A DNA stretch of 64,000 nt, taken from an uncultured Dehalococcoidaceae bacterium. Lineage in GTDB: Bacteria; Chloroflexota; Dehalococcoidia; Dehalococcoidales; RBG-16-60-22. Below, piece by piece: positions 17,474 to 38,860 of the stretch; position 1 is the first letter of the stretch; every line of letters begins with the position of its first letter. Under the pieces are notes generated by a model. The model was not told the DNA's origin. It saw nothing but the letters and a program-made list of their open reading frames with translations, and made no database searches. A program made the position numbers and the translations under genes. The stretch is from positions 15,204-79,203 of the forward strand of contig CAZCOB010000001.1 of the NCBI GenBank assembly GCA_964500415.1, given 5' to 3'.

Positions 17474-18697
17474 TTATCCCGAGGGTCCTTCCGGCCGGGT
17501 AAAACGGGGCAAATCCTTAATTTCATCAAGTATCTGTGAGGCCATCGTCAGGGCTTCGTTACATTTATTTTCCACAAACTCTGTTAGTATCTTTCTGGCT
17601 TCATCCGGCTTACCATCGTCAGCCAGAATCGCAACCTTTGCCTCCAGCCCGGTGCTTTCCTCCATGGTGTGTATTTCGAATATCTTCCAGTAACGGGTAA
17701 TTTTATCCCGGTACTCCGGGTGGTATTCTACCGCTAACCGCAGCTCTTCGAATATTTTAGCCGCCGCATTTGTCCCCATCGACTCGGGCACGGCATTAAT
17801 ACCGATATAGAATGGCAGATAGGGGGAAATACAGGGCTGTCCGAAGGTCGTCCACAGGCAGCTAAGCAAATCGGTATGGTCCGGCCTGGCAACGCAGATG
17901 TAGGCATAGGTCGTATATCCCTTCAGTCCGTGCGTGCATATGGTATAATGGTCTCTCTCCTCCGATACACCTAATACGCTGAACCGGTGGTCCTCGGGAG
18001 AGGTGTTTCCATGGTCTCTGAAGCAGCTCATCAGGTAGGACAGCGATATGCCCCTGGCGAACGTCATGCAGGAGTCGTATTGCTGGTCTATCAGCAGTTG
18101 CCACATCCTCTTGGCCCTGATGTAACCCAGTCCGATTCCGGCTTCAACCGCCTTGAGCCTTTGCGCAACAAAGAAATTGGCGTGGGCAAAGACCTGGTCG
18201 GTCATGGGGCCGTGGACGGCATGATTTTCCGGATTGTTATAAACCCAGTTTGCGGCTTCCAGGAGGTAGCCTTCCCTGGGGTCAGCAATCGTATGCGCAC
18301 CTGCCCCGCTGGGAAATTCGATTCCGTATTTGGTCACGTTCTCCGACCATAACTCGACGAATTTCCTGGCGCTATCGGACCGCTGCATCAGTTCCTTGCT
18401 GCTGAGAGGTTGCGGCTTATCCGGGCCGGGATACGGGACTATTCCGGCCGAACGGAAAAATTCGGTATTGCAAACGCCCTTTTCATTCAATGCGCTCATC
18501 GGACGCTCGAACATGCCGGCTACAGACAGGCATCGGTACCCGTCTTTGGGGATAACCAGCTCTATTTTAACGTTCTGCCAGAAGGGCACAAAAAGGTCCA
18601 TGGACTGCCCCACCATATTCCCCCCGCCTGCCGATGTTAAGCCCGTTACGAGTGCTCCCGTACATCCGCCTGGTGGTTGATACACAGTCTTTTCCAT
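17474..18697 (-). CDS. Ntn-hydrolase, C69/secernin-like or C45-related
   Basis: N-terminal GGCTG putative nucleophile then SAGGGNMVGQSMD; LNEKGV, AHANFF; C69-like C-terminal PCISPYLPF; GGAGG RBS before ATG 18697. Confidence 0.65.
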   Translation of the reverse strand: MEKTVYQPPGGCTGALVTGLTSAGGGNMVGQSMDLFVPFWQNVKIELVIPKDGYRCLSVAGMFERPMSALNEKGVCNTEFFRSAGIVPYPGPDKPQPLSSKELMQRSDSARKFVELWSENVTKYGIEFPSGAGAHTIADPREGYLLEAANWVYNNPENHAVHGPMTDQVFAHANFFVAQRLKAVEAGIGLGYIRAKRMWQLLIDQQYDSCMTFARGISLSYLMSCFRDHGNTSPEDHRFSVLGVSEERDHYTICTHGLKGYTTYAYICVARPDHTDLLSCLWTTFGQPCISPYLPFYIGINAVPESMGTNAAAKIFEELRLAVEYHPEYRDKITRYWKIFEIHTMEESTGLEAKVAILADDGKPDEARKILTEFVENKCNEALTMASQILDEIKDLPRFTRPEGPSG

Positions 18698-18811
18698 ACA
18701 ACCTCCAATCGTCCGCTGCTTTTTTTCTTTCATCTTTCCCCTCCTTAAACCGTTTGTCCGTTGATACTGACGATTTATACAGGGCAGTCTTCGATAACCC
18801 GCCGGTATTAC

Positions 18812-19594
18812 TTATTCGTCTCTCCCCGAGAGCAACCTGCCGCTGGTAACTTCCTTAAAGCGTTTGTTATACCCCTCCCGACCATCTGTATAGGCAGCGA
18901 TTACCCAGGTCATCTCTTTCAGGTTTTCTATCATGTTTCTTAATAAATTAAACGGTATGGATACGGTAACGTATCCCATCGTTGCCACCTGGCGTGCGAT
19001 ATGGCCGAAACATACTCCTTCAACGACATAGTTCAGTTGGCCTGAAATGTATGGATATACGAATGTCCACGCACAGCCGATAACCGGTGTGGTTCTACTG
19101 ACATACATTTCACCGGTTGAATAAGAATAAGATCGCAGTACAATTTCAGCCTGCCTGGCGGTGCCCGTGATAATCAGTACATCAGGGTCGAAATCCATCT
19201 CACTCAACGGCGCGAAGATGATATAGTTGCAGCTACCTTTTCTTAAAGTGGGAAGCACCTCGTAAATACGCCGGTTGGCGCGTGCCTCCTGAAAAATATC
19301 CAGTCCGTACTTGGTGCCAATTTGTCCGGACACGCTGAACGGGTCGTCATTGGCTATACCCAGACAAAGCGGCCCGGCACATTCAAAATGTGTCTCATCA
19401 ACATAAAAAGCTCCTGAATTCTGGGCTTCTTCCGGCATCAGGCAGAAAGCGAGGTTTTTATCCAGTCTCCTTACACCTTCCGGTTTATTAAAGAGAAATT
19501 TGATGCCGACAGGTTGTCTCTCCAGTTCCAGCTTGTTGAGAATCGACAAATCGATGCTTAGCGGATGTATCTCTGCGCTATTAAACTTGGTCAT
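18812..19594 (-). CDS. DUF169 domain protein
   Basis: PVGIKF, FCLM, FECAG, GC; GGAGGTGG RBS. Confidence 0.8.
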   Translation of the reverse strand: MTKFNSAEIHPLSIDLSILNKLELERQPVGIKFLFNKPEGVRRLDKNLAFCLMPEEAQNSGAFYVDETHFECAGPLCLGIANDDPFSVSGQIGTKYGLDIFQEARANRRIYEVLPTLRKGSCNYIIFAPLSEMDFDPDVLIITGTARQAEIVLRSYSYSTGEMYVSRTTPVIGCAWTFVYPYISGQLNYVVEGVCFGHIARQVATMGYVTVSIPFNLLRNMIENLKEMTWVIAAYTDGREGYNKRFKEVTSGRLLSGRDE

Positions 19595-19664
19595 AATTCC
19601 ACCTCCAATTATAATATTTTTTTATTCTAGCACATATTGTTATTAATGATTACCCCAGATTCCC

Positions 19665-20852
19665 TCAGTTTTTGCCTTCTTTCACCAAGGGCGCAAGTAT
19701 CAATGTTACCACGACTACCGCTATACTGGCCCAGGTAAAGCAGTTAGAGAAACCGTAATTATCCATCAGGTAGCCCATCAATGGAGCGAGCAGGGCGCTG
19801 CTCTCGGTCATGGAAAAATAATAAATCCCGTAGACCAGGGAACGGTTGCGCTCGGTCGTCTGCCCGATAATGTATGCTTCGGACACCGGCATACGAGTAT
19901 ACATTGCCATGCCGTATACAAAAGACACCACCGCTATTCCCCAGTAATAAGGGGCCCAGTTGAGCATATAAACGGCGGCGGCACTTGCCAGGCAAGATGT
20001 TACCACCAGCGGGACTCTTCCCAGGCGGTCGGAAAGGTAACCGCCCAGCGGACTTATCCAGATACCGGCCGCATTCATTATGACGAGGAAGGACGCAGCC
20101 CCTGTTATACTGGCGCCAAAATTATCGACGGCGTAAAGAGTGATAAATGCGAATACGGAACTGACAATTCCACCCGTTAAGACGCTTAGCAGAAGAAATG
20201 CCACCAGGTGCCGCCCCTTGCCCTTGGGCATTGGTTTGGCTTCCGGGCTGTGATCGAGTTCGCGGCGAGTTTCGCTTGTTTTCTTGGGTCGGCGGGTGAG
20301 TTTTATCATGAATAGTCCACATATCATTGTGGGTATGGCGAGGATAATAAAAGCACTGCGCCATCCGCCGACAGAAGCTATTGCCGTGGCGATAAGTGGG
20401 GTCACCAGAAAGCTGGCGCTGGCTCCCATCTCGTGAAAACCCAGGGCCCGACCGCGATTCTTCCCCGCCGCCGCCGAGACCATCGGCGCCGCAGACGGAT
20501 GGTAGCCGCCTCCCAGAATACCCATCACCACCAGAAAAGACAGCATCATGACATAGGTCCGGGACAGCCCTATAAGTATCCCCCCGGCAGCTACACCACA
20601 TATGCCGATAATCAACAGGATACGCGGCCCGATTCTGTCGGCGAGAAAACCGGCCGGGATTTGGGCAGTTCCGTATGTCCAGGAGAACGATGATTGAATT
20701 AGCGCTGCTCTGGTATAGCTCAGGTTGAATTCGTCGCGGATAAGCGGCAGCAACGGAGCCGGCAATGCGATTAGTATGTGATGAACGAAATGCGCCAGCA
20801 CATAAACGGGAAGAAATCCCTGAAAAATCGAGCGAAGTCGAGATTTTTTAAT
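19665..20852 (-). CDS. MFS transporter, paralog 1, probable ATT start
   Basis: GFLADRIGPR and GYLSDRLGR motif A, YHP; frame stays open to ATT at 20852 with AAGGA 7 nt upstream; the ORF track starts it at GTG 20801. Confidence 0.85.
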   Translation of the reverse strand: MKKSRLRSIFQGFLPVYVLAHFVHHILIALPAPLLPLIRDEFNLSYTRAALIQSSFSWTYGTAQIPAGFLADRIGPRILLIIGICGVAAGGILIGLSRTYVMMLSFLVVMGILGGGYHPSAAPMVSAAAGKNRGRALGFHEMGASASFLVTPLIATAIASVGGWRSAFIILAIPTMICGLFMIKLTRRPKKTSETRRELDHSPEAKPMPKGKGRHLVAFLLLSVLTGGIVSSVFAFITLYAVDNFGASITGAASFLVIMNAAGIWISPLGGYLSDRLGRVPLVVTSCLASAAAVYMLNWAPYYWGIAVVSFVYGMAMYTRMPVSEAYIIGQTTERNRSLVYGIYYFSMTESSALLAPLMGYLMDNYGFSNCFTWASIAVVVVTLILAPLVKEGKN

Positions 20853-20885: not shown

Positions 20886-22592
20886 TTATTTAATTACTCC
20901 GGCGTTATAAACGATATTACCGCCGACTACCGTCATTACGGTTTTTATATTCTGTATTTCATGGGGTTCGATACTCAGAATGTCCTGGTCCAGGATACAG
21001 AGGTCGGCCAGCTTGCCTGCCTCGAGAGAGCCTTTGATTTTTTCCGAGTGGTCCTGCCAGGCACCTTCGATGGTGTACATCCGGATGGCTTCTTCAACGG
21101 TAATACGCTGGTCCGGCCCCCTGACTGTGCCGGTGGCCTTGGACTCCCGGAGCACCGCCGCCTGGATTCCAGCCTGCCAGCTGGGGTAGACTACCGGGGC
21201 ATCAGACCCGGCCGCCAGGTGCGCTCCGGCGTCAAGCATTTTACGCAGCGGGAACTGCCGGGTGGAAAGCTCAATCCCCACCAGCTTATCCATCGCATCG
21301 GAGAAAGTCCATTTTAAGATTGGCTGTACGCCTAGCCCGAAGCCGTGCCGGGCAGCGAATTCGATATACTCATCCGAGATGAAGTCGGCATGGAGAACAT
21401 AATGACGGAGGCCTTTCGGGGCTTCCTTCTCAGCCTGGAGGAACCCGTCGATGGTGGCTTCAATCGCTCTGCCGCCAATGGCGTGGACCCCCACCTGAAA
21501 TCCGTACTTATGGGCAAAGTAAATCATCTTTATCAACTCACTGCGGCGTTCTTCGTCGCTGCTGCCGGGAATAACCAGACTGCCACGACCACTGCCATCG
21601 GGATAGTCATCGTGCATCCAGGCAGTCTTGGTCATAGGGGTACCGTCGGCGAATATCTTGACCCCCGCCACCCGCAGCCATTCGTTACCGAAACCGGTAT
21701 GAATGCCCAGCTGGGGAATAACCTCCCGGAAATCCTCGAAGGTACAGGCGCCGTATTCCCCGAAGAGGTATAGCCAGCCCGCCCTCAGTGTCAGCCTGCC
21801 TTCATTGAGCAGGTCGCTGTAAATCCCGATACAATCGGACCCGAACAGACCCCCCTGGAATTCGTCGCCTCCGGAACCAAGCGCGCCCTCCGTGATGCTG
21901 GTTATACCTAGCGAATTCAGGTCTCTTATCATGGCCTGGATTCCCTGCCGTTTCTCTTCTTTCGTCCAGGGAGGTACCGCCTTCATCACGAGAGCCTGCG
22001 CCGGAAACTCGCTGAAGATACCCGTAAGCTCTCCGGTGGCCGGGTCTTTAGCGATTACCCCGCCCTCCGGGGTCGGTGTGTCTCTGGTAATCCCGGCTGC
22101 CTCCATTGCCCGGCTGTTCACCCACACCTCGTGCTGGGTGTAATGACCGAGTATTACAGGGTTATCCGGAGACACTGCATCCAGGTCCCGGCGGCTCGGG
22201 TAACGCGCCGGGTCTTTTAAGCATTCCTCCAGATAGCCTTCGTCCCAGCCCATACCCCGTATCCACTCACCGGGTCTGGCTTCTTTCGCCTTCTCGGCGA
22301 CAGCCTTCACGATATCACTGATTGATTTTACCGTCGGATAGCCGACATCAAGGGTCAGGGGAGGCCGCGTGCCGCCGTAGAGGGCGGCATGAATATGAGC
22401 GTCATTAATACCCGGCAGCATCGTCCTGCCCTTAAGGTCGATAACCTCGCTTTTAGCGTCGATACATGTTTTAATACCCTCATCCGACCCAACGGCAAGA
22501 ATTTTGTCTCCTTCAACTGCCACCGCTTGAGCGATAGAGAAACTACCGTCAACTGTAATCACCTTTCCGTTGATAAAAACTAAGTTAGCCAT
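20886..22592 (-). CDS. YtcJ-like amidohydrolase (Amidohydro_3), paralog 1
   Basis: PGINDAHIH, KIFADG, HAIG, RHYVLHAD, GSDAPV, GSLEAGKLAD. Confidence 0.9.
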   Translation of the reverse strand: MANLVFINGKVITVDGSFSIAQAVAVEGDKILAVGSDEGIKTCIDAKSEVIDLKGRTMLPGINDAHIHAALYGGTRPPLTLDVGYPTVKSISDIVKAVAEKAKEARPGEWIRGMGWDEGYLEECLKDPARYPSRRDLDAVSPDNPVILGHYTQHEVWVNSRAMEAAGITRDTPTPEGGVIAKDPATGELTGIFSEFPAQALVMKAVPPWTKEEKRQGIQAMIRDLNSLGITSITEGALGSGGDEFQGGLFGSDCIGIYSDLLNEGRLTLRAGWLYLFGEYGACTFEDFREVIPQLGIHTGFGNEWLRVAGVKIFADGTPMTKTAWMHDDYPDGSGRGSLVIPGSSDEERRSELIKMIYFAHKYGFQVGVHAIGGRAIEATIDGFLQAEKEAPKGLRHYVLHADFISDEYIEFAARHGFGLGVQPILKWTFSDAMDKLVGIELSTRQFPLRKMLDAGAHLAAGSDAPVVYPSWQAGIQAAVLRESKATGTVRGPDQRITVEEAIRMYTIEGAWQDHSEKIKGSLEAGKLADLCILDQDILSIEPHEIQNIKTVMTVVGGNIVYNAGVIK

Positions 22593-23002
22593 TACATCGC
22601 CTGCTTTCCGCTAATAATTTCTGCAAAATAGGCAGAATCAAAATGCATCCGGACGCTCTTGATTTTGTCGTCCCTGAATTCATAGATATTGGCGCAGGGT
22701 ATCTCGAACGTTTGCGCATCCCCGCCTCCCACAAGCAGCCACTCAACGGCAACCCGATTACCCTCACCGAAAACGCCCTGCACCCTGGCTTTCACCGGCG
22801 GCAGGTTTGCCAGCCATGTAAAAAAATCCTTTACCTCGTCAAGACCGGAAGCAGTGTTAGTGTCCTTGTAGCCGGCGACCTTCATAACCGGGTCCCATAC
22901 CACGGCGCTGTCGGTATAACAGGCCAGTTTTTTCTCCAGGGTCTCCGGGCCGATACTGAGGACATCGGCAGTAGCTACCTTCTTATTATTTTCTACGCTC
23001 AC
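22592..23002 (-). CDS. NTF2-like / SnoaL-like protein
   Basis: GEGNRVAVEW..IYEFRDDKIKSVRMHFD fold pattern. Confidence 0.8.
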   Translation of the reverse strand: MSVENNKKVATADVLSIGPETLEKKLACYTDSAVVWDPVMKVAGYKDTNTASGLDEVKDFFTWLANLPPVKARVQGVFGEGNRVAVEWLLVGGGDAQTFEIPCANIYEFRDDKIKSVRMHFDSAYFAEIISGKQAM

Positions 23003-23024: not shown

Positions 23025-23495
23025 TTATTTGTATTGCCCCGGATTCTTTATGGCATCATCTTCAGCCGTGGGATATTTATCGGTCAAAGCAAATACCACC
23101 AGCAGGAACGGCTTATCGACACGTTTATGCATGAAGGGGCAGTGTGGCACGCCTTTCGGTACGAAAATCGTAGTCGTCTTACTAAAAGTGTGTTTTTCAT
23201 CGCCGATGTGAAATTCAATCTCGCCGCCCAACTCCCGCGGGCGCTCCGGGTCAGTCCCGATAAAACAGAGGACTTCGTCAAAATCATGGGTATGCGTCCA
23301 TTCCACGGGATCCGGCTCTGGTATCTGAAAACACCATCCGATATCTACCACCGCCGGTGAGCCTGCAATGATGTCGCCGTCGAGATAAATCTCGTCGGGG
23401 AAGGTTACTCCTTTGACGTTCTTAACCGGGTGGTAAGCAACACTTTCCACCCTGGGTTCGGTGATGAAGTATTTACCGTATTTGCTTTCCCCCAT
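23025..23495 (-). CDS. Uncharacterised cupin-like protein, paralog 2
   Basis: HTHDFDE..GTDPERPRELGGEIE..EKH..VPKGVPHCP. Confidence 0.8.
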   Translation of the reverse strand: MGESKYGKYFITEPRVESVAYHPVKNVKGVTFPDEIYLDGDIIAGSPAVVDIGWCFQIPEPDPVEWTHTHDFDEVLCFIGTDPERPRELGGEIEFHIGDEKHTFSKTTTIFVPKGVPHCPFMHKRVDKPFLLVVFALTDKYPTAEDDAIKNPGQYK

Positions 23496-23573: not shown

Positions 23574-24950
23574 TCAGTGTTTTCTACAGACATCCAGAAC
23601 AATATCAACCGCCTTTTCCAGATATTCTTTAGTGATGGTCAAGGGGGGCATGAAACGTATCACATTATGGTAGCGACCGCAGGGGACGGCGATTACGCCC
23701 CGGTCAAGCAGCCCGGACAATATTTTGCCCATGTCATCGGCGGGGAGGGGTTCCCTGGTTTCCTTGTTCTTCACCAGCTCCACCCCGATGAACAAACCCC
23801 GACCTCGGACATCCCCAACAATATTAATTTTCTTTGATTCTTCTTTAAGCCTGGCTTCTATTTCTTCACCCAGCTTGGCGGCCCTGCCCATCAGGTCGTA
23901 ATTCTTATCGGTCAGTATATCGATATTGGTCATGCAGACAGCGGCGGAGAGAGCGTTCCCGGCAAATGTACCCGGCTGGGAAGCCTCTACCAGTTTATCG
24001 GCAAAATCGGCTTTAAACGTAAGACCGGCCATCGGGAGGTCGCCACCCAGTCCCTTGCCCCATATAAGCATGTCCGGGACGACATCACTAAACTCGATAG
24101 ACCACATTTTACCGCTGCGTCCCGCCCCTGCCTGGACTTCATCGGCGATAAACAAGGCACCGCATTTTTCGCAGGCTTTCTTCAATGTCTCCATATAACC
24201 CGGCGGCGGTACCAGGTAGCCTCCCTCCCCCTGCAGCGGCTCCACGATGAGTGCGGCGACGTCATCAGCCGCAGTGTAAGGGGTATTGAGCACATAATCG
24301 ACGTATTTAGCACATTGGAGGTCACAGCTCGGGTACTCCAGGCCAAAGCAGCAGCGGTAACAATAGGCATAAGGCACGTGGATTACATAGGGCATGAGAG
24401 GACCGTAACCATGATGGTACTGGTCCCCGGTGGTCAGCGCCCCGGAACCGCACCACACCCCGTGATAGGCGCCGTGAAAAGCGACAATCTGCGCCCTCCC
24501 GGTCAAATGACGAGCGAACTTTATGGCTGTTTCCACAGCTCCGCTGCCGCTCTGGGTAAAGTAACTGACACAATTGCCACGCAAACCTTCAGGCATGATA
24601 TCGGATATTTTCCTAGCTAATTCCGTACGACGGGTATTAACCGCTTCAGCGGCGTGCATAATTTTACCCAACTGCCCCTCCATGGCCTGGACTACTCTGG
24701 GGTGTCTGCGTCCCACAGAATTTACCGCTACCCCGGCGGACATATCGATGAAAATGTTTCCGTCGGGGTCTTTCACCGCGGCGCCCATACCCTCGTCAAA
24801 AACCGGAGGAGCCGCGCTGCCGGGTCGGGTTAAAGACTCGTATTTGGGTACGTCTTTCAACACCTTGAGACTCTTGGGGCCGGGAATAGCGGTTATTATT
24901 TCCGGAGCTCCGGGGTAGGATAATTTAGCGAGTTCTGCTTCTGATATCAC
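23574..24950 (-). CDS. Class III PLP aminotransferase (GabT-like omega-transaminase)
   Basis: SGSGAVETA, FHGAYHG, EPLQGEGG, FIADEVQAGAGRSG, WGKGLGG. Confidence 0.92.
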   Translation of the reverse strand: MISEAELAKLSYPGAPEIITAIPGPKSLKVLKDVPKYESLTRPGSAAPPVFDEGMGAAVKDPDGNIFIDMSAGVAVNSVGRRHPRVVQAMEGQLGKIMHAAEAVNTRRTELARKISDIMPEGLRGNCVSYFTQSGSGAVETAIKFARHLTGRAQIVAFHGAYHGVWCGSGALTTGDQYHHGYGPLMPYVIHVPYAYCYRCCFGLEYPSCDLQCAKYVDYVLNTPYTAADDVAALIVEPLQGEGGYLVPPPGYMETLKKACEKCGALFIADEVQAGAGRSGKMWSIEFSDVVPDMLIWGKGLGGDLPMAGLTFKADFADKLVEASQPGTFAGNALSAAVCMTNIDILTDKNYDLMGRAAKLGEEIEARLKEESKKINIVGDVRGRGLFIGVELVKNKETREPLPADDMGKILSGLLDRGVIAVPCGRYHNVIRFMPPLTITKEYLEKAVDIVLDVCRKH

Positions 24951-25031: not shown

Positions 25032-25862
25032 TTAAAAGCCGTTACCGCGAGATAATTGACCGCCGTCTATATAGATAGTCTGTCCCGTAACCCAGTCGGA
25101 TGCCTCTGATGCAAGATATACCACCAGCAGTCCGATTTCACGTATTTCACCTAATCGCCCCAGAGGAACCCTCTCCAGTATTGCCTTCTTTCTCTCCGGG
25201 TCATCGAGCACGGGCGCGCTTAATTCGGTATGAACGCTCCCGGGACCGACGGCATTAACGCAGATGTTATAAGGGGCCCACTCCGTGGCCAGGCAGCGGG
25301 TAAACATACTCAGGCCGGCTTTACTGACACAATATGCCGAAAAATAAGGAGGAGCCAGCTCGGCACTGTTCGAACTGATGTTAATGACTTTCCCCTTTTG
25401 CCGCCCCATCATATGCGGACCCACAGCCTGCGCGAAGAGAAAGGCACTGGTCAAATTGGTATTTAAAACAAGGTGCCATTCTTCTTCGGTTAGCGGTGTA
25501 TCCCAGCTATCTGCGGTCTGCCAGCCCTCGAGCTTCATCCCGGCTACGAAAGCAATGGGTTTGAGAATGGGTATGCCGGCATTATTTACGAGGATATCTA
25601 TTTTACCGAATTCTGAAACGGTTTTGGTAACTGCATTTTCCACGTGCTCTTTCTTGAGCACGTCGGTCGGAACAACCAGTACGCTACGCCCCAACTTGCG
25701 TATCTCTTTAGCCGCGTTTTCTAGCTGCTCCTCGGTGCGAGCCGCCAGGGTAACGTTCGCGCCGGCCTCAGCGAGAGTCTGGGCAATCCCCCTGCCGATG
25801 CCCCTTCCCGCCCCTGTTACGATAGCTACCTTGCCTTGAAGACTGTATTCCTTAAGAATCAC
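25032..25862 (-). CDS. SDR family oxidoreductase
   Basis: TGAGRGIG, NNAG, YCVSK, NAVGPG. Confidence 0.92.
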   Translation of the reverse strand: MILKEYSLQGKVAIVTGAGRGIGRGIAQTLAEAGANVTLAARTEEQLENAAKEIRKLGRSVLVVPTDVLKKEHVENAVTKTVSEFGKIDILVNNAGIPILKPIAFVAGMKLEGWQTADSWDTPLTEEEWHLVLNTNLTSAFLFAQAVGPHMMGRQKGKVINISSNSAELAPPYFSAYCVSKAGLSMFTRCLATEWAPYNICVNAVGPGSVHTELSAPVLDDPERKKAILERVPLGRLGEIREIGLLVVYLASEASDWVTGQTIYIDGGQLSRGNGF

Positions 25863-26929: not shown

Positions 26930-27009
26930 ATTCCATTATTCCTTGATAAGGCGTAAGGTGAAATAATATATAAGATTGTCAAATAATAATAAAAGATTTT
27001 TAGCAACCA

Positions 27010-30216: not shown

Positions 30217-30624
30217 TTAATCCGGATAAGCGGCTATTGCATCCACCTCTACCTTAAAGGTGTCCACAGCCAGCCCATCCACAACTGCGAGCGTCCCGGT
30301 ACTTGGTTTTTCTTTCAAATCCGGCGCCAGACGGTAGCACTCTTGATGGAATTTCTGTATTACCTCGACGGGGTCCGCGGCGCCCTTCTTCATATAAAGA
30401 GTGTGTTTTATCATGTTTCCTATGGAAAGGCCGATTTCCTCCAGCGCGGCGTTCATCTTCTTCACAACCACCTCTATCTGTGCATTTATGTCCTCAGGGA
30501 CCGCTCCACCCTTGTCAAAATCCATTGCCTCTGTTCCGGAAAGGAAAACCAGCTTGCCGACCGTCAGCGTTTTGCAGATGTCCATCTGCATTCCTTCAAA
30601 ATACGTGCGATGATAATTATCCAT
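30217..30624 (-). CDS. Rid/YjgF family protein lacking the catalytic Arg
   Basis: LVFLSG, KVEVDAIA; PAR motif replaced by PSTG. Confidence 0.85.
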   Translation of the reverse strand: MDNYHRTYFEGMQMDICKTLTVGKLVFLSGTEAMDFDKGGAVPEDINAQIEVVVKKMNAALEEIGLSIGNMIKHTLYMKKGAADPVEVIQKFHQECYRLAPDLKEKPSTGTLAVVDGLAVDTFKVEVDAIAAYPD

Positions 30625-30661: not shown

Positions 30662-32371
30662 TTATTTACCCAATCCGGCACTATATACAATCTCGCCGCC
30701 AACTATCGTCATCAAGGTACGTATATCTTTTATTCTTTGCGGTTCGACGGTTAGAATATCTTCGTCTAAAACGCAGAAATCCGCCAGCTTTCCTTCTTCG
30801 ATAGAACCTTTGATGTCTTCTGCGTGGTCCTGCCAGGCGCCTCCCACCGTAAACATGCGGATGGCTTCTTCCACAGTTACGTGCCGGGCTGGCTCACCCT
30901 CCGTCGCATAATTTCGTAAAACGATGGACTGTATTGTCGCCTTCCAATCAGGATACGTAACCGGAGCGTCGGAACCACCGGCAATATGAACGCCGGCATC
31001 AAGCAATGTTCTTAAACACCCGTATTGTGCCGCTCTTTGCGTACCCACGGAATACGGCAGCAAATTCATAACGATATCAGCTAGAGCCGGCTGCACCGAA
31101 ACGCCAATGTTATACATATTCATAAGCTTCGCTCCCTCGGGTGATACATAATCTCCGTGAATAAGGTAATGCCTGAGCTTCTTCGGCTCTTCGCGTTCGG
31201 CTTTTACAAAACTGTCAATACACGCGTCGATAGCTCTATCTCCCGTAACGTGAACGCCTACCCGGAAACCAAGTTTATGACAATGGGCCACGATTTTCAT
31301 CAGTTCAGTGCAGCGTTCTTCGTCGGTTTCACCGGTGAAAATCATTTTACCGTTGCCACCATCTTCGTAATCTTTGTACATCCAGGCGGTCTTGTTCAGG
31401 GGTATACCATCGGCAAAGAGTTTGACTCCGGCCATTCTCACCCGCTCAGTGTTAAAATCGGAATTCGTCCCTAATTGAGATAGTCCATCATATAATGCTT
31501 GGGGGTCGTATGAGCCGTACGGTGTAAATAGCATCATGATGCCTACCCTTAGAGAAAGCCTGCCCGCATTATCAAGCTCTTTGTAAACTTCGATACACTC
31601 TTCATTCCACAACCCGCCCTGATATCCGGTGCCGCCCGGGCCAAGAGCCCCCTCGGTTATGCTCGTTATACCCAGCGAATTCAGTTCCTTCACAGCGGTA
31701 AGAAGTGCTTTTCGCTTTTGTTCTCGTGTCAAATCGGGAATAACGCTGGCGACCATCTCTCCCAGTTGCGCCCCCCTCAGCAAACCGGTAGGCTCTCCGT
31801 TTACCGGGTCTTTGACTATCTCACACCCCGGAAGCGCCGGTGTATCCCCGGTGATTCCAACCAGTTCCAGGGCCCGGGTATTAAGCCAGGTAACACTCTC
31901 TCCGATAGTAAAAGGAATCACACCAAGACAAACAGGATTGACAGGAGATACCAGGTCCAGGTCCCATCGTGTCGGGTACCTTGCGGGACTACTTTTACAT
32001 TCCTTCAGTGTACCCAGATTTAACCCTGACCCCCGGATCCATTTACCGGGTTTGGTCTTTTTAGCCTGCTTCCCAACTGCGTTCACAATATCGCGAATCG
32101 ACTTCATAGCAGGGTAACCGGCATCAAGTACCACAGGCGGTCTCGACCCCCAGTAGAGGGCTGCATGGATATGGGCGTCATTAATACCCGGAAGCATGGT
32201 TTTCCCTTCCAGGTCTATGATTTTTGTCTGCCTGTCACCCAATGCTTTAATATTATCGTTAGTGCCAACGGTTACTATTTTCCCGCCCTTTACTGCAACT
32301 GCCTGGGCGATGTAAAAATTCCCGTCAACTGTGATTATATTGCCATTAATAATTATCAAATCTGCTGACAT
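30662..32371 (-). CDS. YtcJ-like amidohydrolase, paralog 2
   Basis: PGINDAHIH, KLFADG, HVTG, RHYLIHGD, GSDAPV, GSIEEGKLAD. Confidence 0.9.
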   Translation of the reverse strand: MSADLIIINGNIITVDGNFYIAQAVAVKGGKIVTVGTNDNIKALGDRQTKIIDLEGKTMLPGINDAHIHAALYWGSRPPVVLDAGYPAMKSIRDIVNAVGKQAKKTKPGKWIRGSGLNLGTLKECKSSPARYPTRWDLDLVSPVNPVCLGVIPFTIGESVTWLNTRALELVGITGDTPALPGCEIVKDPVNGEPTGLLRGAQLGEMVASVIPDLTREQKRKALLTAVKELNSLGITSITEGALGPGGTGYQGGLWNEECIEVYKELDNAGRLSLRVGIMMLFTPYGSYDPQALYDGLSQLGTNSDFNTERVRMAGVKLFADGIPLNKTAWMYKDYEDGGNGKMIFTGETDEERCTELMKIVAHCHKLGFRVGVHVTGDRAIDACIDSFVKAEREEPKKLRHYLIHGDYVSPEGAKLMNMYNIGVSVQPALADIVMNLLPYSVGTQRAAQYGCLRTLLDAGVHIAGGSDAPVTYPDWKATIQSIVLRNYATEGEPARHVTVEEAIRMFTVGGAWQDHAEDIKGSIEEGKLADFCVLDEDILTVEPQRIKDIRTLMTIVGGEIVYSAGLGK

Positions 32372-32441
32372 TCGCTCTAAACCTGTCTTTGAGTTCCATT
32401 TTAACTATATAAATCTTTACGGCATCAAGACACAAAAAGCC

Positions 32442-32527
32442 GATATTGCTTTTAGGGTATATTAATCTATTATGCGGTTCAAGATACTAATAGACTCCAC
32501 CTTTCGGACAATAATATATATCTTCCG
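32442..32527 (-). promoter_or_regulatory. Regulon promoter block B, driving amidohydrolase-rid-C45
   Basis: 62/83 ungapped identity to 27010-27092 by manual count; -10 TATACC. Confidence 0.75.
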
Positions 32528-32754: not shown

Positions 32755-32819
32755 GTCCAAAAGATGGAGGCTATTGGTATCTTGAAGTATAAAATACGTT
32801 GATATAATCTGAGAGTAAT
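32755..32819 (+). promoter_or_regulatory. Regulon promoter block C, driving the ABC operon
   Basis: GTCCAAAAGATGGAGGCTATTGGTATCTTGAAG-N15-TATAAT-CTGAGAG; inverted copy of A and B. Confidence 0.75.
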
Positions 32820-32990: not shown

Positions 32991-34667
32991 GTGAAAAAGT
33001 ATTTTATAATTATTTGTGCGATAGTAATAATCGGCTCGCTGATACTTGGCGGTTGTGCCGAACCTGAACCAGAACCGGCACCAGCGCCGGCACCGGCACC
33101 GAGTCCAGAACCGGCACCGAAACCGAGTCCAGAACCGGCACCGGCACCGAGTCCAGAACCGGCACCGGCACCGAGTCCAGAACCGGCACCGGCACCTGAT
33201 CAGCCAAAGTACGGCGGCACGTGGACCATCATGTCGGACACAACTCCCACCAATGTTAACCCCCCGGCCGATGGAGGTTCTTTGTCGACCAGGCATCTTG
33301 TCCCCTGCCTGGAGCCATTACTCCGGCTAGGCGAAGGTGGAGTTCTCCAAGGGCATCTGGCGGAATCCTGGGACGTTTCTCCCGACGGTACCGCCATCAC
33401 CTTCCACCTGCGCCAGGGCATCAAGTTCCATGATGGCACCCCCTTTAATGCCGAGGCGGTCAAATATAACCTGGAAGCAACCGCGGCATCAGGCCTTTGG
33501 GGCGTTGGTATCCTGAACGTTGCCACATCTTATGACATCCTTGACGACTATACCATCCGGGCGAATCTTGACGGCTTCAATTACAGTTACATAACCGCGC
33601 TGGCCGGGCTTGCCGGCATGATCGCATCGCCAACAGCTTTACAGATACCCGCCGAGGACGAAGAACTCCCCGAGCTCCACATGGTAGGCACCGGGCCTTT
33701 CATCTTCGATAGCTTCAAGCGGGATGACTATGTCAAATATACGAAGAACCCGAACTACTGGCAGGAAGGTAAGCCCTACCTCGATGCGGTTGTCTTGAGG
33801 AACATCGCCGACCGAACCGTCGCGTTGATGGCTTTCCAGGCGGGCGAGGCGGACGAGTGGGCGACAGGACTCCAACTGGCTACGTCGAATATGCTGGAAG
33901 AGCAGGGCTACATTATTAGATCATATCCGCTGCGGTTCCATTTTGCCATGGTGTATGACAGCGCGGACCCGGCTTCTCCATTTGCCAACCAAAAAGTACG
34001 CGAAGCTGTTCACTATGGTGTGGACAAGCAGACTCTGGTTAATGGTATCGGCGGCGGCGCAAAGAGAGGATTTACCGCTCTGTATCAGATGGCTGAGCCA
34101 GGCGACCCGTGGTATTGCCCCGAACTGCCGATTCGCGCATACGATCTGGCAAAAGCCAAGCAGATGCTGGCTGACGCCGGTTACCCCGATGGGATAAAGA
34201 CAACGCTCATTTCGGACACCTTTGCGGAGACGAACTTCTTAGAGGCCCTGCAAATCGAGCTTAAAAAGATGGGCATCGATACCGAACTTGACATTGCGGA
34301 TTTTGGTAGGATAACCTCTCTAGAGATGGGCGGTTGGGAAGGTCTGTTGCATCCGGGTTTCCCGACCTCCGATACCATCTCGGGTCTTAACTCCCGCTGG
34401 GGCGACCCGTCCTTCTTCGTCAGTATGTACAAGCCGGCCGGATGGGATGACATGTGGGCTGCAATGATGGCCGAGGTTGACGATAACAAGCGTATAGAAA
34501 TGATGAAAGATATAGTTAGACTCGACTATAATGAGTGTTTAACCTTTACCTGGAGGGCGGATGCTCCTTTCGGAGTGAATGATGGAACCAGTCATGGTTT
34601 CGTACTTCACGCCGGTGGTGCCATGGACATCTGGTGGCCGGAATTCGTTTGGAAAGAACAAAAATAA
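32991..34667 (+). CDS. Family 5 (Opp/Dpp) ABC substrate-binding lipoprotein with a Pro-rich linker
   Basis: Lipobox LGGC; LAESWDVS..LRQGIKFHDGTPFNAEAVK, GTGPF; GGAGG RBS before GTG 32991. Confidence 0.93.
   Translation: MKKYFIIICAIVIIGSLILGGCAEPEPEPAPAPAPAPSPEPAPKPSPEPAPAPSPEPAPAPSPEPAPAPDQPKYGGTWTIMSDTTPTNVNPPADGGSLSTRHLVPCLEPLLRLGEGGVLQGHLAESWDVSPDGTAITFHLRQGIKFHDGTPFNAEAVKYNLEATAASGLWGVGILNVATSYDILDDYTIRANLDGFNYSYITALAGLAGMIASPTALQIPAEDEELPELHMVGTGPFIFDSFKRDDYVKYTKNPNYWQEGKPYLDAVVLRNIADRTVALMAFQAGEADEWATGLQLATSNMLEEQGYIIRSYPLRFHFAMVYDSADPASPFANQKVREAVHYGVDKQTLVNGIGGGAKRGFTALYQMAEPGDPWYCPELPIRAYDLAKAKQMLADAGYPDGIKTTLISDTFAETNFLEALQIELKKMGIDTELDIADFGRITSLEMGGWEGLLHPGFPTSDTISGLNSRWGDPSFFVSMYKPAGWDDMWAAMMAEVDDNKRIEMMKDIVRLDYNECLTFTWRADAPFGVNDGTSHGFVLHAGGAMDIWWPEFVWKEQK
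33093..33194 (+). repeat. Coding tandem repeat, 4 x 24 bp (PSPEPAP[A/K])
   Basis: CCGAGTCCAGAACCGGCA at 33099, 33123, 33147 and 33171. Confidence 0.95.
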
Positions 34668-34702
34668 ATAGAGATAGCTGAAGAAAAGGAATATATACAT
34701 AT

Positions 34703-34739
34703 CGGTGGAGGGGCCGGACACGCTCTAACCCCTCCACCG
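34703..34739 (+). terminator. 11-bp GC stem-loop after the SBP gene (terminator or mRNA stabiliser)
   Basis: CGGTGGAGGGG / CCCCTCCACCG; no U-tract. Confidence 0.6.
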
Positions 34740-34966
34740 GAGTAGAACTTAATAGCTTTATTCTGGTTCTCTGCCTGAATGAACCTTCTGGAATGTATGA
34801 AATAGAAATCAGATTTAAATATAACCTATAACTATAGAAACAACAGAGTTCTTTGATGGTTCAAAGGGTGCCAGTACTTCGAAAGTAACTCCGCCGGCGC
34901 GGTACCTTTTGTAATACACTTCAAATAATAACATGTAAGCGAAAATAAGCCAGCGAGAGGTCTTGA

Positions 34967-35929
34967 ATGGCAGGCTACGTGATTCGCCGATTATTCATGG
35001 GTCTTATTGTCGTCATAATAGTGACCATCCTGGTATTTCTCCTGATACGGCTTCTGCCGGGTGACCCGCTCTTGGTGTATCTAACCCAGCAGCAATACAG
35101 GGATACGGCTTACGACCCTGCCCAGCTGGCACAATTGCAGGCACAGTATGGCCTGGACAAACCACTGCCCATACAGTATATATCCTGGATAGCGGATATG
35201 TTCCACGGCGATTTCGGAGAATCAATTAATCTTAAGGAGCCGGTGTCGAAGCTGATTGGAGAACGCTTACCGGTGACCCTACACCTGAGTATCATTGGCG
35301 CCATATTCGCTACAGTTTTCGGTATAGGTTTCGGCATAATCTGCGCTTTAAGGCGAGGCACGTGGCTGGATACCGTGCTTACTTTCCTGGCAAACATAGG
35401 TATAACTATGCCCAGCTTCTGGGCAGCTATTCTGCTCATATATCTGTTCGGCCTCAAGCTGGGCTGGGTGCCGATCGGGGGTTACACATCACCGTTCGAG
35501 GACTTCTGGTTGAACACCCGCCAGATAGTATTGCCGGTTTTCTGCATGTCGCTCTTCGGCCTGGCATCAAACACGCGCCTGACGCGTTCCTGTATGCTTG
35601 AGGTCGTCGCTCAGGATTATATTCGCACAGCCTGGGCTAAAGGCCTGAAAGAGCGGGTTATCGTCCTCAGGCATACCATTAAGAATGGCTTAATACCCTT
35701 AATTGCCAATATGGGTTTCCTGGTCGCCGGCCTGTTCGGCGGTTCGGTGATTATCGAGACTTTATTTAACATTCCCGGTGTCGGGAGATTATTGACAACA
35801 GCTATTCTCGGGCAGGATTACATGATTGTTCAGGCCAGCACTTTGCTGATGGTGGTACTGATAACATTCGCCAACATTGCAGTGGATATTTCCTACGGTT
35901 GGCTTGACCCCAGGATAAGATATGATTAA
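34967..35929 (+). CDS. ABC permease, DppB/OppB-like
   Basis: RLLPGDP, QDYIRTAWAKGL EAA-type motif. Confidence 0.93.
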   Translation: MAGYVIRRLFMGLIVVIIVTILVFLLIRLLPGDPLLVYLTQQQYRDTAYDPAQLAQLQAQYGLDKPLPIQYISWIADMFHGDFGESINLKEPVSKLIGERLPVTLHLSIIGAIFATVFGIGFGIICALRRGTWLDTVLTFLANIGITMPSFWAAILLIYLFGLKLGWVPIGGYTSPFEDFWLNTRQIVLPVFCMSLFGLASNTRLTRSCMLEVVAQDYIRTAWAKGLKERVIVLRHTIKNGLIPLIANMGFLVAGLFGGSVIIETLFNIPGVGRLLTTAILGQDYMIVQASTLLMVVLITFANIAVDISYGWLDPRIRYD

Positions 35930-35940
35930 GGAGTTCTGGT

Positions 35941-36855
35941 ATGGCAGATAGTCCAAACCCCCGCGCCCCGCTAAGCGATACTGTGACGTCGGACGTACCT
36001 TTAAAAAAGTACAGTGAATTTAAGCGCACCGTAGCCGTATTCTTCGGGCGGCCGCTCCCCGTCGCTGGCCTGGTAATTATCACCATTTTTATTATCATTA
36101 CTATTTTCGGCCCCTGGCTGGCTCCCTACGACCCTCTTGATATGGATGTCATGAGCTCGTTAGCGCATCCCAGCAGCAATCACCTCCTCGGCACCGACGA
36201 AATAGGCCGAGATACCTTGAGTCGTTTGATTTACGGCGCGCGTACTTCGCTGTTCATCGGCATCGTGGTCATCGGTGTATCTTCGGCTATTGGTGTACTG
36301 CTGGGTCTTATTGCCGGGTATTCCACCGGAGCACTGCATCATGTAATTATGAGAATTACCGATGGTCTGATGGCCTTTCCGAGTATAATACTGGCTCTCC
36401 TTATCGCCGGGTTGCTCGGAGGTGGTCTGCAGAATGTCATTATAGCTCTGACCGTTGGTATGATAGCGCCGGTTATCCGTATAACATGTGGTACGGCCAT
36501 GTCTATTAAAGAAAATGAATATATTATGGCTGCACGGGCAATGGGCGTGAGCAAACTGAATATTATGATTAGCGAAATTTTACCTAATTGCTTCGCTCCG
36601 ATACTGGTGATGATGACCATGGGAATTGGTGCGACCATTCTGGCGGAGGCGGGGCTCAGTTTTCTGGGGGTAGGTATCACCCCACCGACACCGGTCTGGG
36701 GACGCATGGTAAATGACGGCTATCGATATCTCCTTACCAATCCCGAGTTGTCAATAGCACCTGGCCTGGCGGTCATGCTGGTAGTCTTCGGTTTCAATAT
36801 GATGGGTGATGGCCTGCGGGATGCACTCGACCCGAGGCTGAGAGGTGTTATCTAG
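35941..36855 (+). CDS. ABC permease, DppC/OppC-like
   Basis: HLLGTDEIGRD, EYIMAARAMG. Confidence 0.93.
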   Translation: MADSPNPRAPLSDTVTSDVPLKKYSEFKRTVAVFFGRPLPVAGLVIITIFIIITIFGPWLAPYDPLDMDVMSSLAHPSSNHLLGTDEIGRDTLSRLIYGARTSLFIGIVVIGVSSAIGVLLGLIAGYSTGALHHVIMRITDGLMAFPSIILALLIAGLLGGGLQNVIIALTVGMIAPVIRITCGTAMSIKENEYIMAARAMGVSKLNIMISEILPNCFAPILVMMTMGIGATILAEAGLSFLGVGITPPTPVWGRMVNDGYRYLLTNPELSIAPGLAVMLVVFGFNMMGDGLRDALDPRLRGVI

Positions 36856-36887
36856 TTATTGCTCAAAGAATAAGCAAGGAAGTTGAC

Positions 36888-37880
36888 ATGGAAGCTCTGC
36901 TAAATGTTGAAAATCTTAAGACTTACTTCAATACCTACCACGGACAGGTTAAAGCTGTAGATGGCGTCTCCTTTCATATAAATCAGAAAGAGACTATTGG
37001 TATAGTGGGAGAGAGTGGTTGTGGTAAATCGGTGAGTATGTTGTCAGTAATGCAGTTAATCACCACGCCACCGGGTGATATAGTTGACGGCAAGGTTATC
37101 TTCGAAGGGAATGATTTGCTCCAGTACAATGCTAAAGGCGATGTAATGTGTTCTGTCCGCGGTGGGAAAATTAGCATGATATTTCAAGAGCCGATGACCT
37201 CGCTTAACCCAGTACTGACTATTAACCGGCAGTTAACCGAAACGCTGGAGCGGCATCTCGGTATGGACCCCCGTGCGGCCAGGCTGCGCGCTATTGACCT
37301 GCTGAAGCTGGTGGGTATCCCTGAAGCTGAAAAACGCATTGATGCCTACCCGCACCAGTTCAGCGGCGGTATGCGCCAGCGAGTGATGATTGCCATGGCA
37401 ATCTCCTGTAATCCGGAAATACTGATCGCCGATGAACCTACCACAGCTCTAGACGTAACCACTCAGGCGCAGATATTAGACCTCATGAAAAAAATGACAG
37501 AGAACTTGAATACTTCTCTTATTATCGTCACACACAATATCGGCGTAGTCGCCCGTTATGCCGAGAGGATTTATGTCATGTACGCCGGTCGCATCGTTGA
37601 GTCTGGCCATTCCTACGATATATTTGACAACCCGTGCCATCCATACACAATAGGTCTTCTTAAGTGCGTACCTCAGTTGGGAGAAACACGAAACACGAGA
37701 AAACTGGTACCGATTACCGGTATGCCTCCCAACCTGATTGATATGGCCCCAACTTGCGCTTTTCTCCCAAGATGTACTTATCGAACTGAAAGGTGTAAAC
37801 GAGAGCCTTGGCCTCCGTTAAGACAAATAGATGGTCAGCATTATATATCGTGTTATGTTGATACTTGGGAGAAGAAATGA
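36888..37880 (+). CDS. ABC ATPase, DppD-like
   Basis: [29 protein letters not shown] and Cys-rich tail. Confidence 0.94.
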
Positions 37881-38860
37881 AAGAAGCAGCGGATGACTCA
37901 GTAATAGAAGTAAAAAACCTGAAAATGTACTTCCCCATAACAGCAGGCATATTGCGGCGTAAAGTCGGCGATATTAAAGCTGTAGATGACGTGAGTTTCA
38001 AGATAAAGAAAAATGAAACGCTTGGCCTAGTTGGTGAAAGCGGGTGTGGCAAGACCACTGTTGGTCGCTGCATCTTACGCCTTTATCGACCTACCTCCGG
38101 AAATATCACATTTCTCGGACGCGATATATCAAAGATGCCGGAACACCATATTAGACCGATGCGCATACACATGGGCGCTATTTTCCAGGACCCGTATAGC
38201 TCACTTAATCCACGCCAGACGGCCCGCAATATCGTCGGTAAGCCGTTGAAAACCCATAACCTCGTAGGAATGAATGAGTTTAATACCAAGGTATCCGACC
38301 TTTTCAATCTCGTCGGTCTTAACCCCGTAATGATGAACCGCGTTCCTCACGAGTTTAGCGGCGGCCAACGACAGCGTCTGGCTATTGCACGTGCATTAGC
38401 TTGCCAGCCTTCACTGGTAGTCTGTGACGAGCCTATTTCAGCTCTCGACGTTTCGATTCAAGCTCAGATAATTAATATCCTTGAAGAAATCCAGGATATG
38501 ATGGGATTGACGTATCTCTTTATTGCCCACGACCTCTCCGTGGTGCAGCATATCAGCACTCGTGTAGCTGTCATGTATCTGGGACGCATCGTGGAGATAA
38601 CAAACGCGGAGGAACTCTACTCCAATCCGCTGCATCCATATACCAAGGCTTTGCTTTCGGCGGTACCGATACCGAATCCGCATATTGAAAAAAACCGCCA
38701 GCGTATCGTCTTGAAGGGCGAGGTGCCCAGTCCGGCTAATCCGCCGAGTGGTTGTCACTTCCATCCACGCTGCGATTTAGCTACTACAGATTGCATGGAG
38801 ACAAAGCCGACCTTAAGGGACGTTGGTAACGGCCACGAGGTGGCCTGTTTCAGGGTATGA
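37877..38860 (+). CDS. ABC ATPase, DppF-like
   Basis: GESGCGKT, FSGGQRQR, HPYT, CHFHPRC; ATGA overlap with the upstream gene. Confidence 0.94.
   Translation: MKEAADDSVIEVKNLKMYFPITAGILRRKVGDIKAVDDVSFKIKKNETLGLVGESGCGKTTVGRCILRLYRPTSGNITFLGRDISKMPEHHIRPMRIHMGAIFQDPYSSLNPRQTARNIVGKPLKTHNLVGMNEFNTKVSDLFNLVGLNPVMMNRVPHEFSGGQRQRLAIARALACQPSLVVCDEPISALDVSIQAQIINILEEIQDMMGLTYLFIAHDLSVVQHISTRVAVMYLGRIVEITNAEELYSNPLHPYTKALLSAVPIPNPHIEKNRQRIVLKGEVPSPANPPSGCHFHPRCDLATTDCMETKPTLRDVGNGHEVACFRV

Follow-up and report, generated by a model that had tools for sequence, protein, structure and literature searches.

Positions 17474–38860 of the DNA studied here, a 64,000-nt stretch of contig CAZCOB010000001.1 from an uncultured Dehalococcoidaceae bacterium (hereafter called the window), hold three operons that each start behind one copy of the same 32-bp promoter element, with the genes of a two-component system lying between them. 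We propose that this two-component system controls the three operons as one regulon for uptake and amide hydrolysis, a reading to which we assign a probability of about 0.6. That the shared element as such would be a functional cis-regulatory site appears to us more probable than the regulon proposal itself.

Three operons around a two-component system

An earlier note on this DNA had claimed three operons behind homologous promoter blocks with a two-component system in between, and this was confirmed by the open reading frame (ORF) listing, the Pfam and NCBIfam scans and the repeat searches. Its gene calls, including that of an N-terminal nucleophile (Ntn) hydrolase, were also reproduced by the ORF listing and the two scans. 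It had furthermore counted five hydrolases, of which we could find four in the region 17474–38860, namely two Amidohydro_3 proteins, one C45 protein and one Ntn hydrolase. Operon 1 (minus strand, from 26929 to 17474) comprises nine genes in the order DctP, short-chain dehydrogenase/reductase (SDR), class-III pyridoxal phosphate (PLP) enzyme, cupin-like protein, SnoaL_2, Amidohydro_3, major facilitator superfamily (MFS) transporter, DUF169 and, as the last gene, the 419-aa Ntn hydrolase. Operon 2 (minus strand, from 32371 to 29001) encodes Amidohydro_3, Rid-like and C45 proteins, while operon 3 (plus strand, 32991–38860) encodes an SBP_bac_5 protein, two permeases and two ATPases. The response regulator and histidine kinase genes lie on the plus strand at 27154–28965, between operons 1 and 2. 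Gaps within the operons are at most 145 nt, with the exception of 299 nt on the 3' side of the binding-protein gene in operon 3. The genes are as follows.

17474–18733, minus: 419-aa Cys-Ntn hydrolase without a Pfam model, by predicted fold and conserved Cys24
18812–19594, minus: DUF169 protein, invariant member (PF02596, E 3.3e-31)
19665–20801, minus: MFS transporter, variable member (PF07690, E 3.6e-59; best NCBIfam matches all far below cut-off)
20886–22592, minus: YtcJ-like metal amidohydrolase 1 (PF07969, E 1.4e-100, 338.5 bits, threshold 29.7)
22592–23002, minus: SnoaL_2 / NTF2-like protein (PF12680, E 1.9e-14)
23025–23495, minus: 156-aa weakly cupin-like protein, variable member (Cupin_2, E 4.8e-4, 20.2 bits, below the 27.2 cut-off)
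23574–24950, minus: class-III PLP enzyme, omega-aminotransferase or racemase, variable member (PF00202, E 2e-94, 317 bits)
25032–25862, minus: SDR oxidoreductase, variable member (adh_short_C2, E 3e-64)
25859–26929, minus: DctP-type solute-binding lipoprotein of tripartite ATP-independent periplasmic (TRAP) family 7, first gene of operon 1 (PF03480, E 2.5e-19; NF037995, 67 bits, cut-off 50)
27154–27861, plus: NarL/UhpA-class response regulator (REC plus GerE helix-turn-helix), divergent from operon 1 (PF00072, E 7.6e-27; PF00196, E 5e-21)
27874–28965, plus: HisKA_3 histidine kinase with a membrane-embedded N-terminal sensor at residues ~15–135 (PF07730; PF02518, HATPase_c)
29001–30071, minus: C45-family autoproteolytic Cys-Ntn hydrolase/acyltransferase (NF040521, 171.8 bits, cut-off 85; PF03417)
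30217–30624, minus: divergent YjgF/Rid-family protein (PF01042, E 3.2e-11, 43.7 bits, threshold 27.3)
30662–32371, minus: YtcJ-like metal amidohydrolase 2, first gene of operon 2 (PF07969, E 4.8e-93, 313.6 bits, threshold 29.7)
32991–34667, plus: Dpp/GsiB/NikA-like family-5 solute-binding lipoprotein (PF00496, E 8.6e-69)
34967–36855, plus: two ATP-binding cassette (ABC) permeases of DppB/C type (PF00528, PF19300, PF12911)
36888–38860, plus: two ABC ATPases with oligo_HPY C-terminal domains, DppD/F type (PF00005, PF08352)

The shared 32-bp element and its promoters

The core of the element, GTCCaAAAGaTrGAGnCTAnTaGTATCTTGAA, is found once before each of the three operons, with each copy oriented toward its own operon.

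27046–27077, minus: operator A, before operon 1 (-10 box TATACT at 27024–27029, with extended TG)
32478–32509, minus: operator B, before operon 2 (-10 box TATACC at 32456–32461)
32755–32786, plus: operator C, before operon 3 (-10 box TATAAT at 32803–32808, with extended TG)

The blocks were evident in the repeat search as a direct pair of 27005–27092 and 32437–32524 (74% identity over 88 nt), with inverted pairs joining the blocks of both operon 1 and operon 2 to 32746–32819. Searching the window for the 32-nt core pattern with up to three mismatches gave exactly these three places, with 0.00 expected. A weight matrix built from 17 sites was scanned over the 64-kb window and the related loci described below; operators A, B and C scored 52–54 bits, and all other positions in the 64 kb reached 8 bits or less, including those upstream of the aldehyde:ferredoxin oxidoreductase and second C45 genes further downstream. 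The best of 20 shuffled controls gave 13.8 bits.

Each block has the same layout, with the core being followed by a variable 13-nt spacer and then by T(G/A)ATATA(C/A)TCT, which contains the -10 hexamer; the 3' end of the core is thereby positioned 16 nt upstream of that hexamer, and an extended TG is found in two of the three copies. The sole -35-like hexamer is TTGAAG at a spacing of 15 nt, with no good -35 at normal spacing in the blocks, and a generic sigma-70 scan did not list the block promoters. This suggests a weak -35 element and dependence on an activator, rather than absence of a promoter. The best dyad in the core is GAGnCTAnTAGTATC, having five of its seven arm positions complementary in 70–100% of the sites and its centre ~42 bp upstream of the predicted transcription start, with the core spanning about -61 to -30. 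Relative to that predicted start, this is the classic geometry of a class-II activator site. At operator A there is also an exact direct repeat, CCAAAAGATA, at 27066–27075 and 27087–27096, 21 bp apart. Because operator A shares the 224-bp intergenic region at 27 kb with the response regulator gene, autoregulation of that gene is plausible.

Conservation of the cluster in related lineages

Relatives were found through close homologues of amidohydrolase 1 and their contigs as well as through kinase searches, whereby the cluster was recovered in four other Dehalococcoidaceae lineages, or five lineages together with the window. Every locus of sufficient length had all three sites, each in the position that it has in the window (the orthologous copies are those of L002/L014, L004, L007-9/L015/L016, L013, L017 and L018). 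Over the five lineages the core was 96% identical within a site type and 86% identical between types, and the -10 region 93% and 84%, respectively. The corresponding values were 64% and 37% for the spacer before the -10 box, and 46% and 38% for the 30 nt upstream of the core. Such conservation of the core against decayed flanks can be read as a clear phylogenetic footprint. Element and two-component system went together in all loci examined, and six loci having homologous enzymes but lacking this two-component system (L010-12, L020-22) held no site above 5.1 bits. In L004 we found a fourth, diverged operator (18989–19020, minus strand, 35 bits) in front of an extra operon encoding SBP_5 and two permeases, and the regulon may hence be larger in some genomes.

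The earlier note had named scattering of the genes among relatives as a finding that would speak against it; synteny in the five lineages showed instead that the gene set co-occurs. The genes for DctP, both amidohydrolases, DUF169, the Ntn hydrolase, the C45 and Rid-like proteins, the two-component system and the ABC importer were invariant across the lineages, with orthologues in the relatives being 82–88% identical for amidohydrolase 1 and 88–92% identical for DUF169, and with the Dpp-type importer conserved in L013–L016. The DctP gene adjoined that of the response regulator in every related locus. With a kinase search of genome contigs revealing the cluster in only two species, and a metagenome search using the kinase alignment giving five loci, the exact cluster looks narrow in its distribution, as judged with pattern-based searches that are insensitive.

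Beyond these lineages, homologues of the Ntn hydrolase at 48–64% identity again adjoined one or two Amidohydro_3 genes, in other gene orders. Their loci included Aminotran_3 genes (L021, L022), SBP_5 binding proteins (L020, L022) and a GerE-type regulator (L021). One 62%-identical amidohydrolase was found together with Aminotran_3, an NTF2-like protein and an amino-acid/amide-type ABC system, the NTF2-like gene preceding the aminotransferase–amidohydrolase pair (L010), and a second amidohydrolase of 62% identity adjoined only an amino-acid/amide-type ABC system (L012). Since the module thus recurs in distant relatives in other arrangements, a functional link between the hydrolases, the PLP enzyme and peptide-type uptake seems robust beyond this particular cluster.

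The two-component system and its candidate co-sensor

All residues of the acidic pocket of the response regulator (DD24-25, D70, T98 and K120) are present. The designation of the system as NarL-type, as first proposed, held with regards to domain class (REC plus GerE, and HisKA_3 plus HATPase_c), but the equivalog scores were not reached, with the response regulator at 172.5 bits against NarL (cut-off 250) and the kinase at 83 bits against NarX (cut-off 578). The kinase core rather resembles those of UhpB (137 bits) and MctS (144 bits), both again below the equivalog cut-offs, and its H-box, REIHDDTTQ, is invariant in five orthologues.

Hydrophobic regions of the kinase are found at residues 13–44, 64–97 and 105–134, which by our reading would form about four membrane helices with short loops and no extracytoplasmic domain. 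This membrane domain is highly conserved among the orthologues. The N-terminal module (residues 1–150; 27874–28323) has no Pfam model and belongs to a family of 219 representative clusters, in which it is fused to HisKA_3, PAS-HisKA, GAF-HisKA or PAS-GGDEF outputs, and it looks like an undescribed sensor module of MASE type.

A kinase with a membrane bundle of this kind usually needs a partner in order to sense a solute. The DctP protein carries an N-terminal signal with the lipobox LGGC and has weak PDB matches (E 1e-25). Neither the scanned ORFs of the window nor the related loci with the cluster included DctQ or DctM, so that a TRAP transporter, composed of DctP, DctQ and DctM, is not complete here, and uptake through DctP is doubtful because of these missing partners. 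Being encoded by the first gene behind operator A, always beside the response regulator gene and without DctQ and DctM, this orphan lipoprotein would instead be the best candidate for a co-sensor.

Four hydrolases of two folds

Amidohydrolases 1 and 2 are paralogues of 568–569 aa, 53% identical to each other and both present in every relative. They have the motifs HxH, VK(I/L)FADG, GVH, (L/I)H(A/G)D and GSDAP in common, which by analogy with the superfamily pattern probably provide the metal ligands. Their nearest PDB entry is 3ICJ, an uncharacterised protein, and they reached no NCBIfam equivalog cut-off. PF07969 or the YtcJ-like group includes the N-substituted formamide deformylase NfdA, as the earlier note had stated, together with aminoacylases, the epsilon-lysine acylase SmELA and a metal-dependent bile salt hydrolase (BSH) that cleaves taurine conjugates; those members that have been characterised cleave N-acyl or N-formyl amines, thereby releasing a primary amine (PMC13081902, PMC10699109). 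Such a product would suit a class-III aminotransferase.

The protein encoded at 29001–30071 belongs to the C45 family by its NF040521 score (171.8 against a cut-off of 85) and aligns to isopenicillin-N acyltransferase (IAT; PDB 2x1d, E 4.4e-11). Its Cys-Thr pair at residues 109–110 aligns with Cys24-Thr25 of the 419-aa Ntn hydrolase. A second C45 paralogue is encoded at 46247–47305, outside the region, with no operator before its gene.

The 419-aa protein had no Pfam match and fell below the NCBIfam cut-offs of both C45 (45.1 bits, cut-off 85) and C69 (16.1 bits, cut-off 250), which places it in neither family. Its own family is rare, with 84 homologues found, mostly of ~400 aa and without Pfam domains except for one C69 protein. 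Orthologues start ~19 residues after the longest-ORF start, with Met13 (18697) as the likely start. Cys24, the predicted nucleophile, is conserved in at least 90% of the sequences. An AlphaFold2 (AF2) model of the protein (pLDDT 86.8), having an extra C-terminal helical region, gave as best Foldseek match the C69 dipeptidase of L. farciminis (5img/5iau; E 3.7e-14, TM score 0.62–0.65), followed by IAT (E 1e-10) and then by BSH and penicillin V acylase (E 1e-6 to 1e-5), so that membership in the Ntn-hydrolase superfamily is supported by the model. As hydrophobic segments were absent from all enzymes of the cluster, hydrolysis would be cytoplasmic.

Uptake proteins and proteins with no assigned step

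Operon 3 encodes a full Dpp/Opp-type importer, with a family-5 binding protein, two permeases and two oligo_HPY ATPases. The binding protein probably starts at the GTG at 32991, which follows a GGAGG, and has the lipobox LGGC followed by a Pro/Ala/Glu-rich linker; a 12-nt periodic repeat at 33055–33196 encodes this (PAPE/PSPE)n linker between lipobox and SBP_5 body. Its best PDB match was GsiB (1uqw, E 2.8e-39), and its NCBIfam matches, with GsiB and NikA nearest, were far below cut-off.

The DUF169 protein has three invariant cysteines (C51, C72 and C174). We found no PDB sequence match for it, its confident AF2 model (pLDDT 88.1) had no structural neighbour in Foldseek (best PDB match E 0.34), and a literature search gave no useful functional lead. 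In a locus of Desulfitobacteriia (L023, 5648–13042) a 67%-identical DUF169 homologue is encoded together with two Amidohydro_2 proteins, SnoaL_2, an Fe-alcohol dehydrogenase and an aldehyde:ferredoxin oxidoreductase. DUF169, SnoaL and aldehyde:ferredoxin oxidoreductase hence recur together outside Dehalococcoidia, as seen in that locus; the distant context of DUF169 is mixed, one further locus being uninformative. For the Rid-like protein there was no NCBIfam match and, on inspection by eye, no PxR motif with the catalytic Arg of RidA in the C-terminal region.

Proposed model

We propose that the response regulator, once phosphorylated by the HisKA_3 kinase, binds the 32-bp element and recruits RNA polymerase to all three promoters, probably also affecting its own promoter. 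The kinase would sense through a partner, for which the DctP lipoprotein is the best candidate. The Dpp-type ABC system would import one or a few compounds that are peptide-like or N-acylated amines, whereupon the four cytoplasmic hydrolases, of two folds (two YtcJ-like binuclear-metal and two Cys-Ntn enzymes), would cut their amide (C-N) bonds stepwise. In most lineages the class-III PLP enzyme would then convert the released omega-amine to an aldehyde, which the SDR or an aldehyde:ferredoxin oxidoreductase encoded nearby could process, with the MFS carrier as a possible exporter of a product. The DUF169, Rid-like, SnoaL-like and cupin-like proteins fit no assignable step. Of the route originally suggested, running from import over amide cleavage and transamination to aldehyde redox, the shared regulon, the co-occurring genes and the amide-cleaving families stood, but transamination and aldehyde redox are not part of a conserved core, their genes being absent in some relatives.

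No described pathway with this gene combination was found in a literature search, in agreement with the earlier note, and the search gave nothing relevant for Dehalococcoidia with amidohydrolase plus aminotransferase or for bacterial C45 enzymes. A more far-reaching version of the proposal would hold that the cluster encodes an undescribed route for N-acyl or isopeptide-type amines in sediment Dehalococcoidaceae, using two families of no known function, the Pfam-less Ntn family and DUF169, with the signal being perceived by a TRAP-type lipoprotein together with a Pfam-less membrane sensor. This we advance as tentative and regard as rather doubtful.

Several points weigh against the proposed regulon and route. 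The model as a whole derives from sequence, with the transcription starts being predicted. The -41.5 placement of the dyad, for which transcription was assumed to start ~7 nt after the -10 hexamer, is good to ~2 bp, and because the core also accommodates other, overlapping dyads and direct repeats, the choice of half-sites is provisional. Overlap with the -35 region would be just as compatible with a repressor site. The role of DctP as co-sensor is argued solely from its adjacency and from the missing DctQ and DctM. With regards to the enzymes, the SDR gene is absent in L002 and L004, operon 1 of L013 has no class-III gene between those for the SDR and the cupin-like protein, the cupin-like gene is absent and SnoaL fragmentary in L004, and the MFS gene is absent in L007 and L016. 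At the place of the class-III gene, L013 has a gap of ~110 nt (700–812), with the rest of the visible operon intact. Since some lineages do without the aminotransferase, SDR, MFS, cupin-like or SnoaL gene, the steps after hydrolysis do not form a fixed pathway. A substrate-specific equivalog cut-off was reached by none of the binding proteins and hydrolases; the substrate is for that reason left unnamed, and confidence in any named substrate would be low. The class-III enzyme, finally, scored almost equally against archaeal amino-acid racemases and aminotransferases and could be a racemase.

Alternative explanations

This last point opens for an explanation in which the same regulon serves the salvage of necromass peptides that contain D-amino acids or isopeptide links, such as peptidoglycan-type stem peptides, with the class-III enzyme acting as racemase or epimerase and the hydrolases as dipeptidases or D-aminoacylase-like enzymes. 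The near-equal scores concern racemases of Ala/Ser, broad-spectrum and Ile 2-epimerase type, and the best PDB sequence matches of the enzyme, which reached no NCBIfam equivalog cut-off, include an archaeal Ala/Ser racemase (9wqz, E 1e-78); the best structural match of the 419-aa protein being a C69 dipeptidase, the peptide/glutathione-like nature of the binding protein and the aminoacylases within PF07969 would agree with such a role. The best single matches of the class-III enzyme are, however, annotated as aminotransferases, namely 7vno of P. horikoshii (E 7e-84) and bacterial gamma-aminobutyrate aminotransferases, the gene is missing in one lineage, and the cluster has neither dedicated D-amino-acid enzymes nor murein-specific genes. 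Moreover, the most closely comparable YtcJ-like enzymes of known activity act on N-acyl amines and not on alpha-peptides. We consider necromass salvage unlikely.

Still less likely, in our judgment, is that a regulator different from the neighbouring two-component system binds the element, or that the element is the operator of a repressor, in which case the two-component system would not be the master switch. Binding of the response regulator to the element is predicted only, the element extends over the -35 region, which is also a binding place of repressors, and its core is long (32 bp) without being a clean palindrome. Against this, Pfam scans of the cluster ORFs revealed no regulator gene besides those of the response regulator and the kinase, the element accompanies the two-component system throughout the loci examined and is absent without it, and a weak -35 together with a dyad near -42 favours activation.

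That the blocks would be leftovers of duplication or a small repeat element having no regulatory role we find very improbable. The region did experience duplication, as amidohydrolases 1 and 2 are paralogous, but the first genes behind the blocks are non-homologous (DctP, amidohydrolase 2 and SBP_5), conservation is confined to the core and the -10 box with decayed flanks, the copies keep one orientation and one distance to the -10 box, a relative has the fourth copy before another transporter operon, and no further copies occur in the 64 kb. Least probable of all is that the blocks act as RNA in the leader of a transcript, for example as riboswitch or attenuator. Their position between divergent genes and 5' untranslated regions of roughly 80–180 nt would allow this. 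The 32 nt of highest conservation are, however, located upstream of the -10 box; Rfam at gathering thresholds gave only three tRNAs in the window, and RNAalifold, run on 13 block sequences, returned -1.96 kcal/mol and 0 compensatory pairs.

Neighbouring genes and significance

Downstream of operon 3, the segment 39173–47305 encodes an aldehyde:ferredoxin oxidoreductase, a flavodoxin/4Fe-4S protein, SnoaL_4, two MFS transporters and the second C45 protein, thus the same families as in the regulon, with an operator before none of the genes. The aldehyde:ferredoxin oxidoreductase gene lies 312 nt downstream of operon 3, and for aldehyde oxidation this enzyme would suit an anaerobe better than the SDR. 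At the other flank, a GntG-family PLP aldolase/low-specificity threonine aldolase (16396–17451; 476 bits, cut-off 230) is encoded convergently with operon 1 and 22 nt from it; its gene was found in no related locus fetched, including L002 and L004, which extend past that flank. Two adjacent tRNA-Ser genes (CGA and GGA; 71% identical, 135 nt from start to start) are found at 16098–16322, upstream of the same cluster flank. Further away, at 3302–10205 on the minus strand, two SAM methyltransferases, an FrhB/FdhB-like Fe-S protein, a polysaccharide pyruvyl transferase and a Wzt-type ABC ATPase make up a probable surface-glycan cluster.

Sediment Dehalococcoidia are abundant and uncultured, and their diet is largely guesswork. 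A regulon defined by its operator lists the proteins expected to share one compound class, here two binding proteins, four hydrolases and a PLP enzyme, and the 32-bp site can be used genome-wide to find further members. It also gives a first functional context for DUF169, for the Pfam-less Ntn hydrolase family and for the Pfam-less membrane sensor domain.

Comparison with known systems

With regards to signaling, the system resembles UhpABC and NarXL of E. coli in pairing a REC plus GerE response regulator with a HisKA_3 kinase, in having a multi-helix membrane input and in controlling transport genes. UhpB senses through a membrane partner. The present system differs from both in its Pfam-less N-terminal sensor family, in scores well below the equivalog cut-offs and in having three catabolic and uptake operons under a 32-bp operator that is unlike the NarL heptamers. 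In DctS/DctR of B. subtilis, the binding protein DctB acts as co-sensor, and likeness to that system lies in the gene for a DctP-family lipoprotein beside the two-component system that is not part of a TRAP transporter; the kinase class differs, being of CitA/DcuS type there, and co-sensing is here inferred only.

The Ntn hydrolases can be compared with two known enzymes. The C45 protein reaches the NF040521 cut-off and aligns to isopenicillin-N acyltransferase of Penicillium, and the 419-aa protein is like the C69 dipeptidase of L. farciminis in its Ntn alpha-beta-beta-alpha fold and in having a Cys after a short propeptide. The models are only 13–16% identical to the IAT and C69 structures, and the 419-aa protein differs in falling below the C45 and C69 thresholds and in its extra C-terminal helices.

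The amidohydrolases are like NfdA, SmELA and BwBSH1 of Bilophila in belonging to PF07969 with 3ICJ as nearest structure, a likeness by family and not by direct sequence comparison. NfdA releases benzylamine and SmELA releases lysine. BwBSH1, which releases taurine, is a protein of 101 kDa with an extra C-terminal domain (PMC13081902, PMC10699109), compared to 568–569 aa for the amidohydrolases here.

At the level of the whole route, its logic, with amide hydrolysis, omega-transamination and aldehyde conversion, is like that of nylon-oligomer, ectoine and taurine-conjugate catabolism, with the hydrolase families differing. Catabolism of nylon oligomers and 6-aminohexanoate (NylA/B/C, NylD and NylE) combines amide hydrolases of several folds, with NylC being of Ntn type, with a class-III omega-aminotransferase and an aldehyde oxidoreductase, and in ectoine catabolism (DoeABCD) a TRAP (DctP-type) binding protein is also present. 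To these schemes the present cluster adds DUF169, Rid-like and SnoaL-like proteins and a Dpp-type importer. There is nothing unusual in its mode of control, the activation of catabolic and uptake operons by a two-component system; the combination of genes is undescribed.

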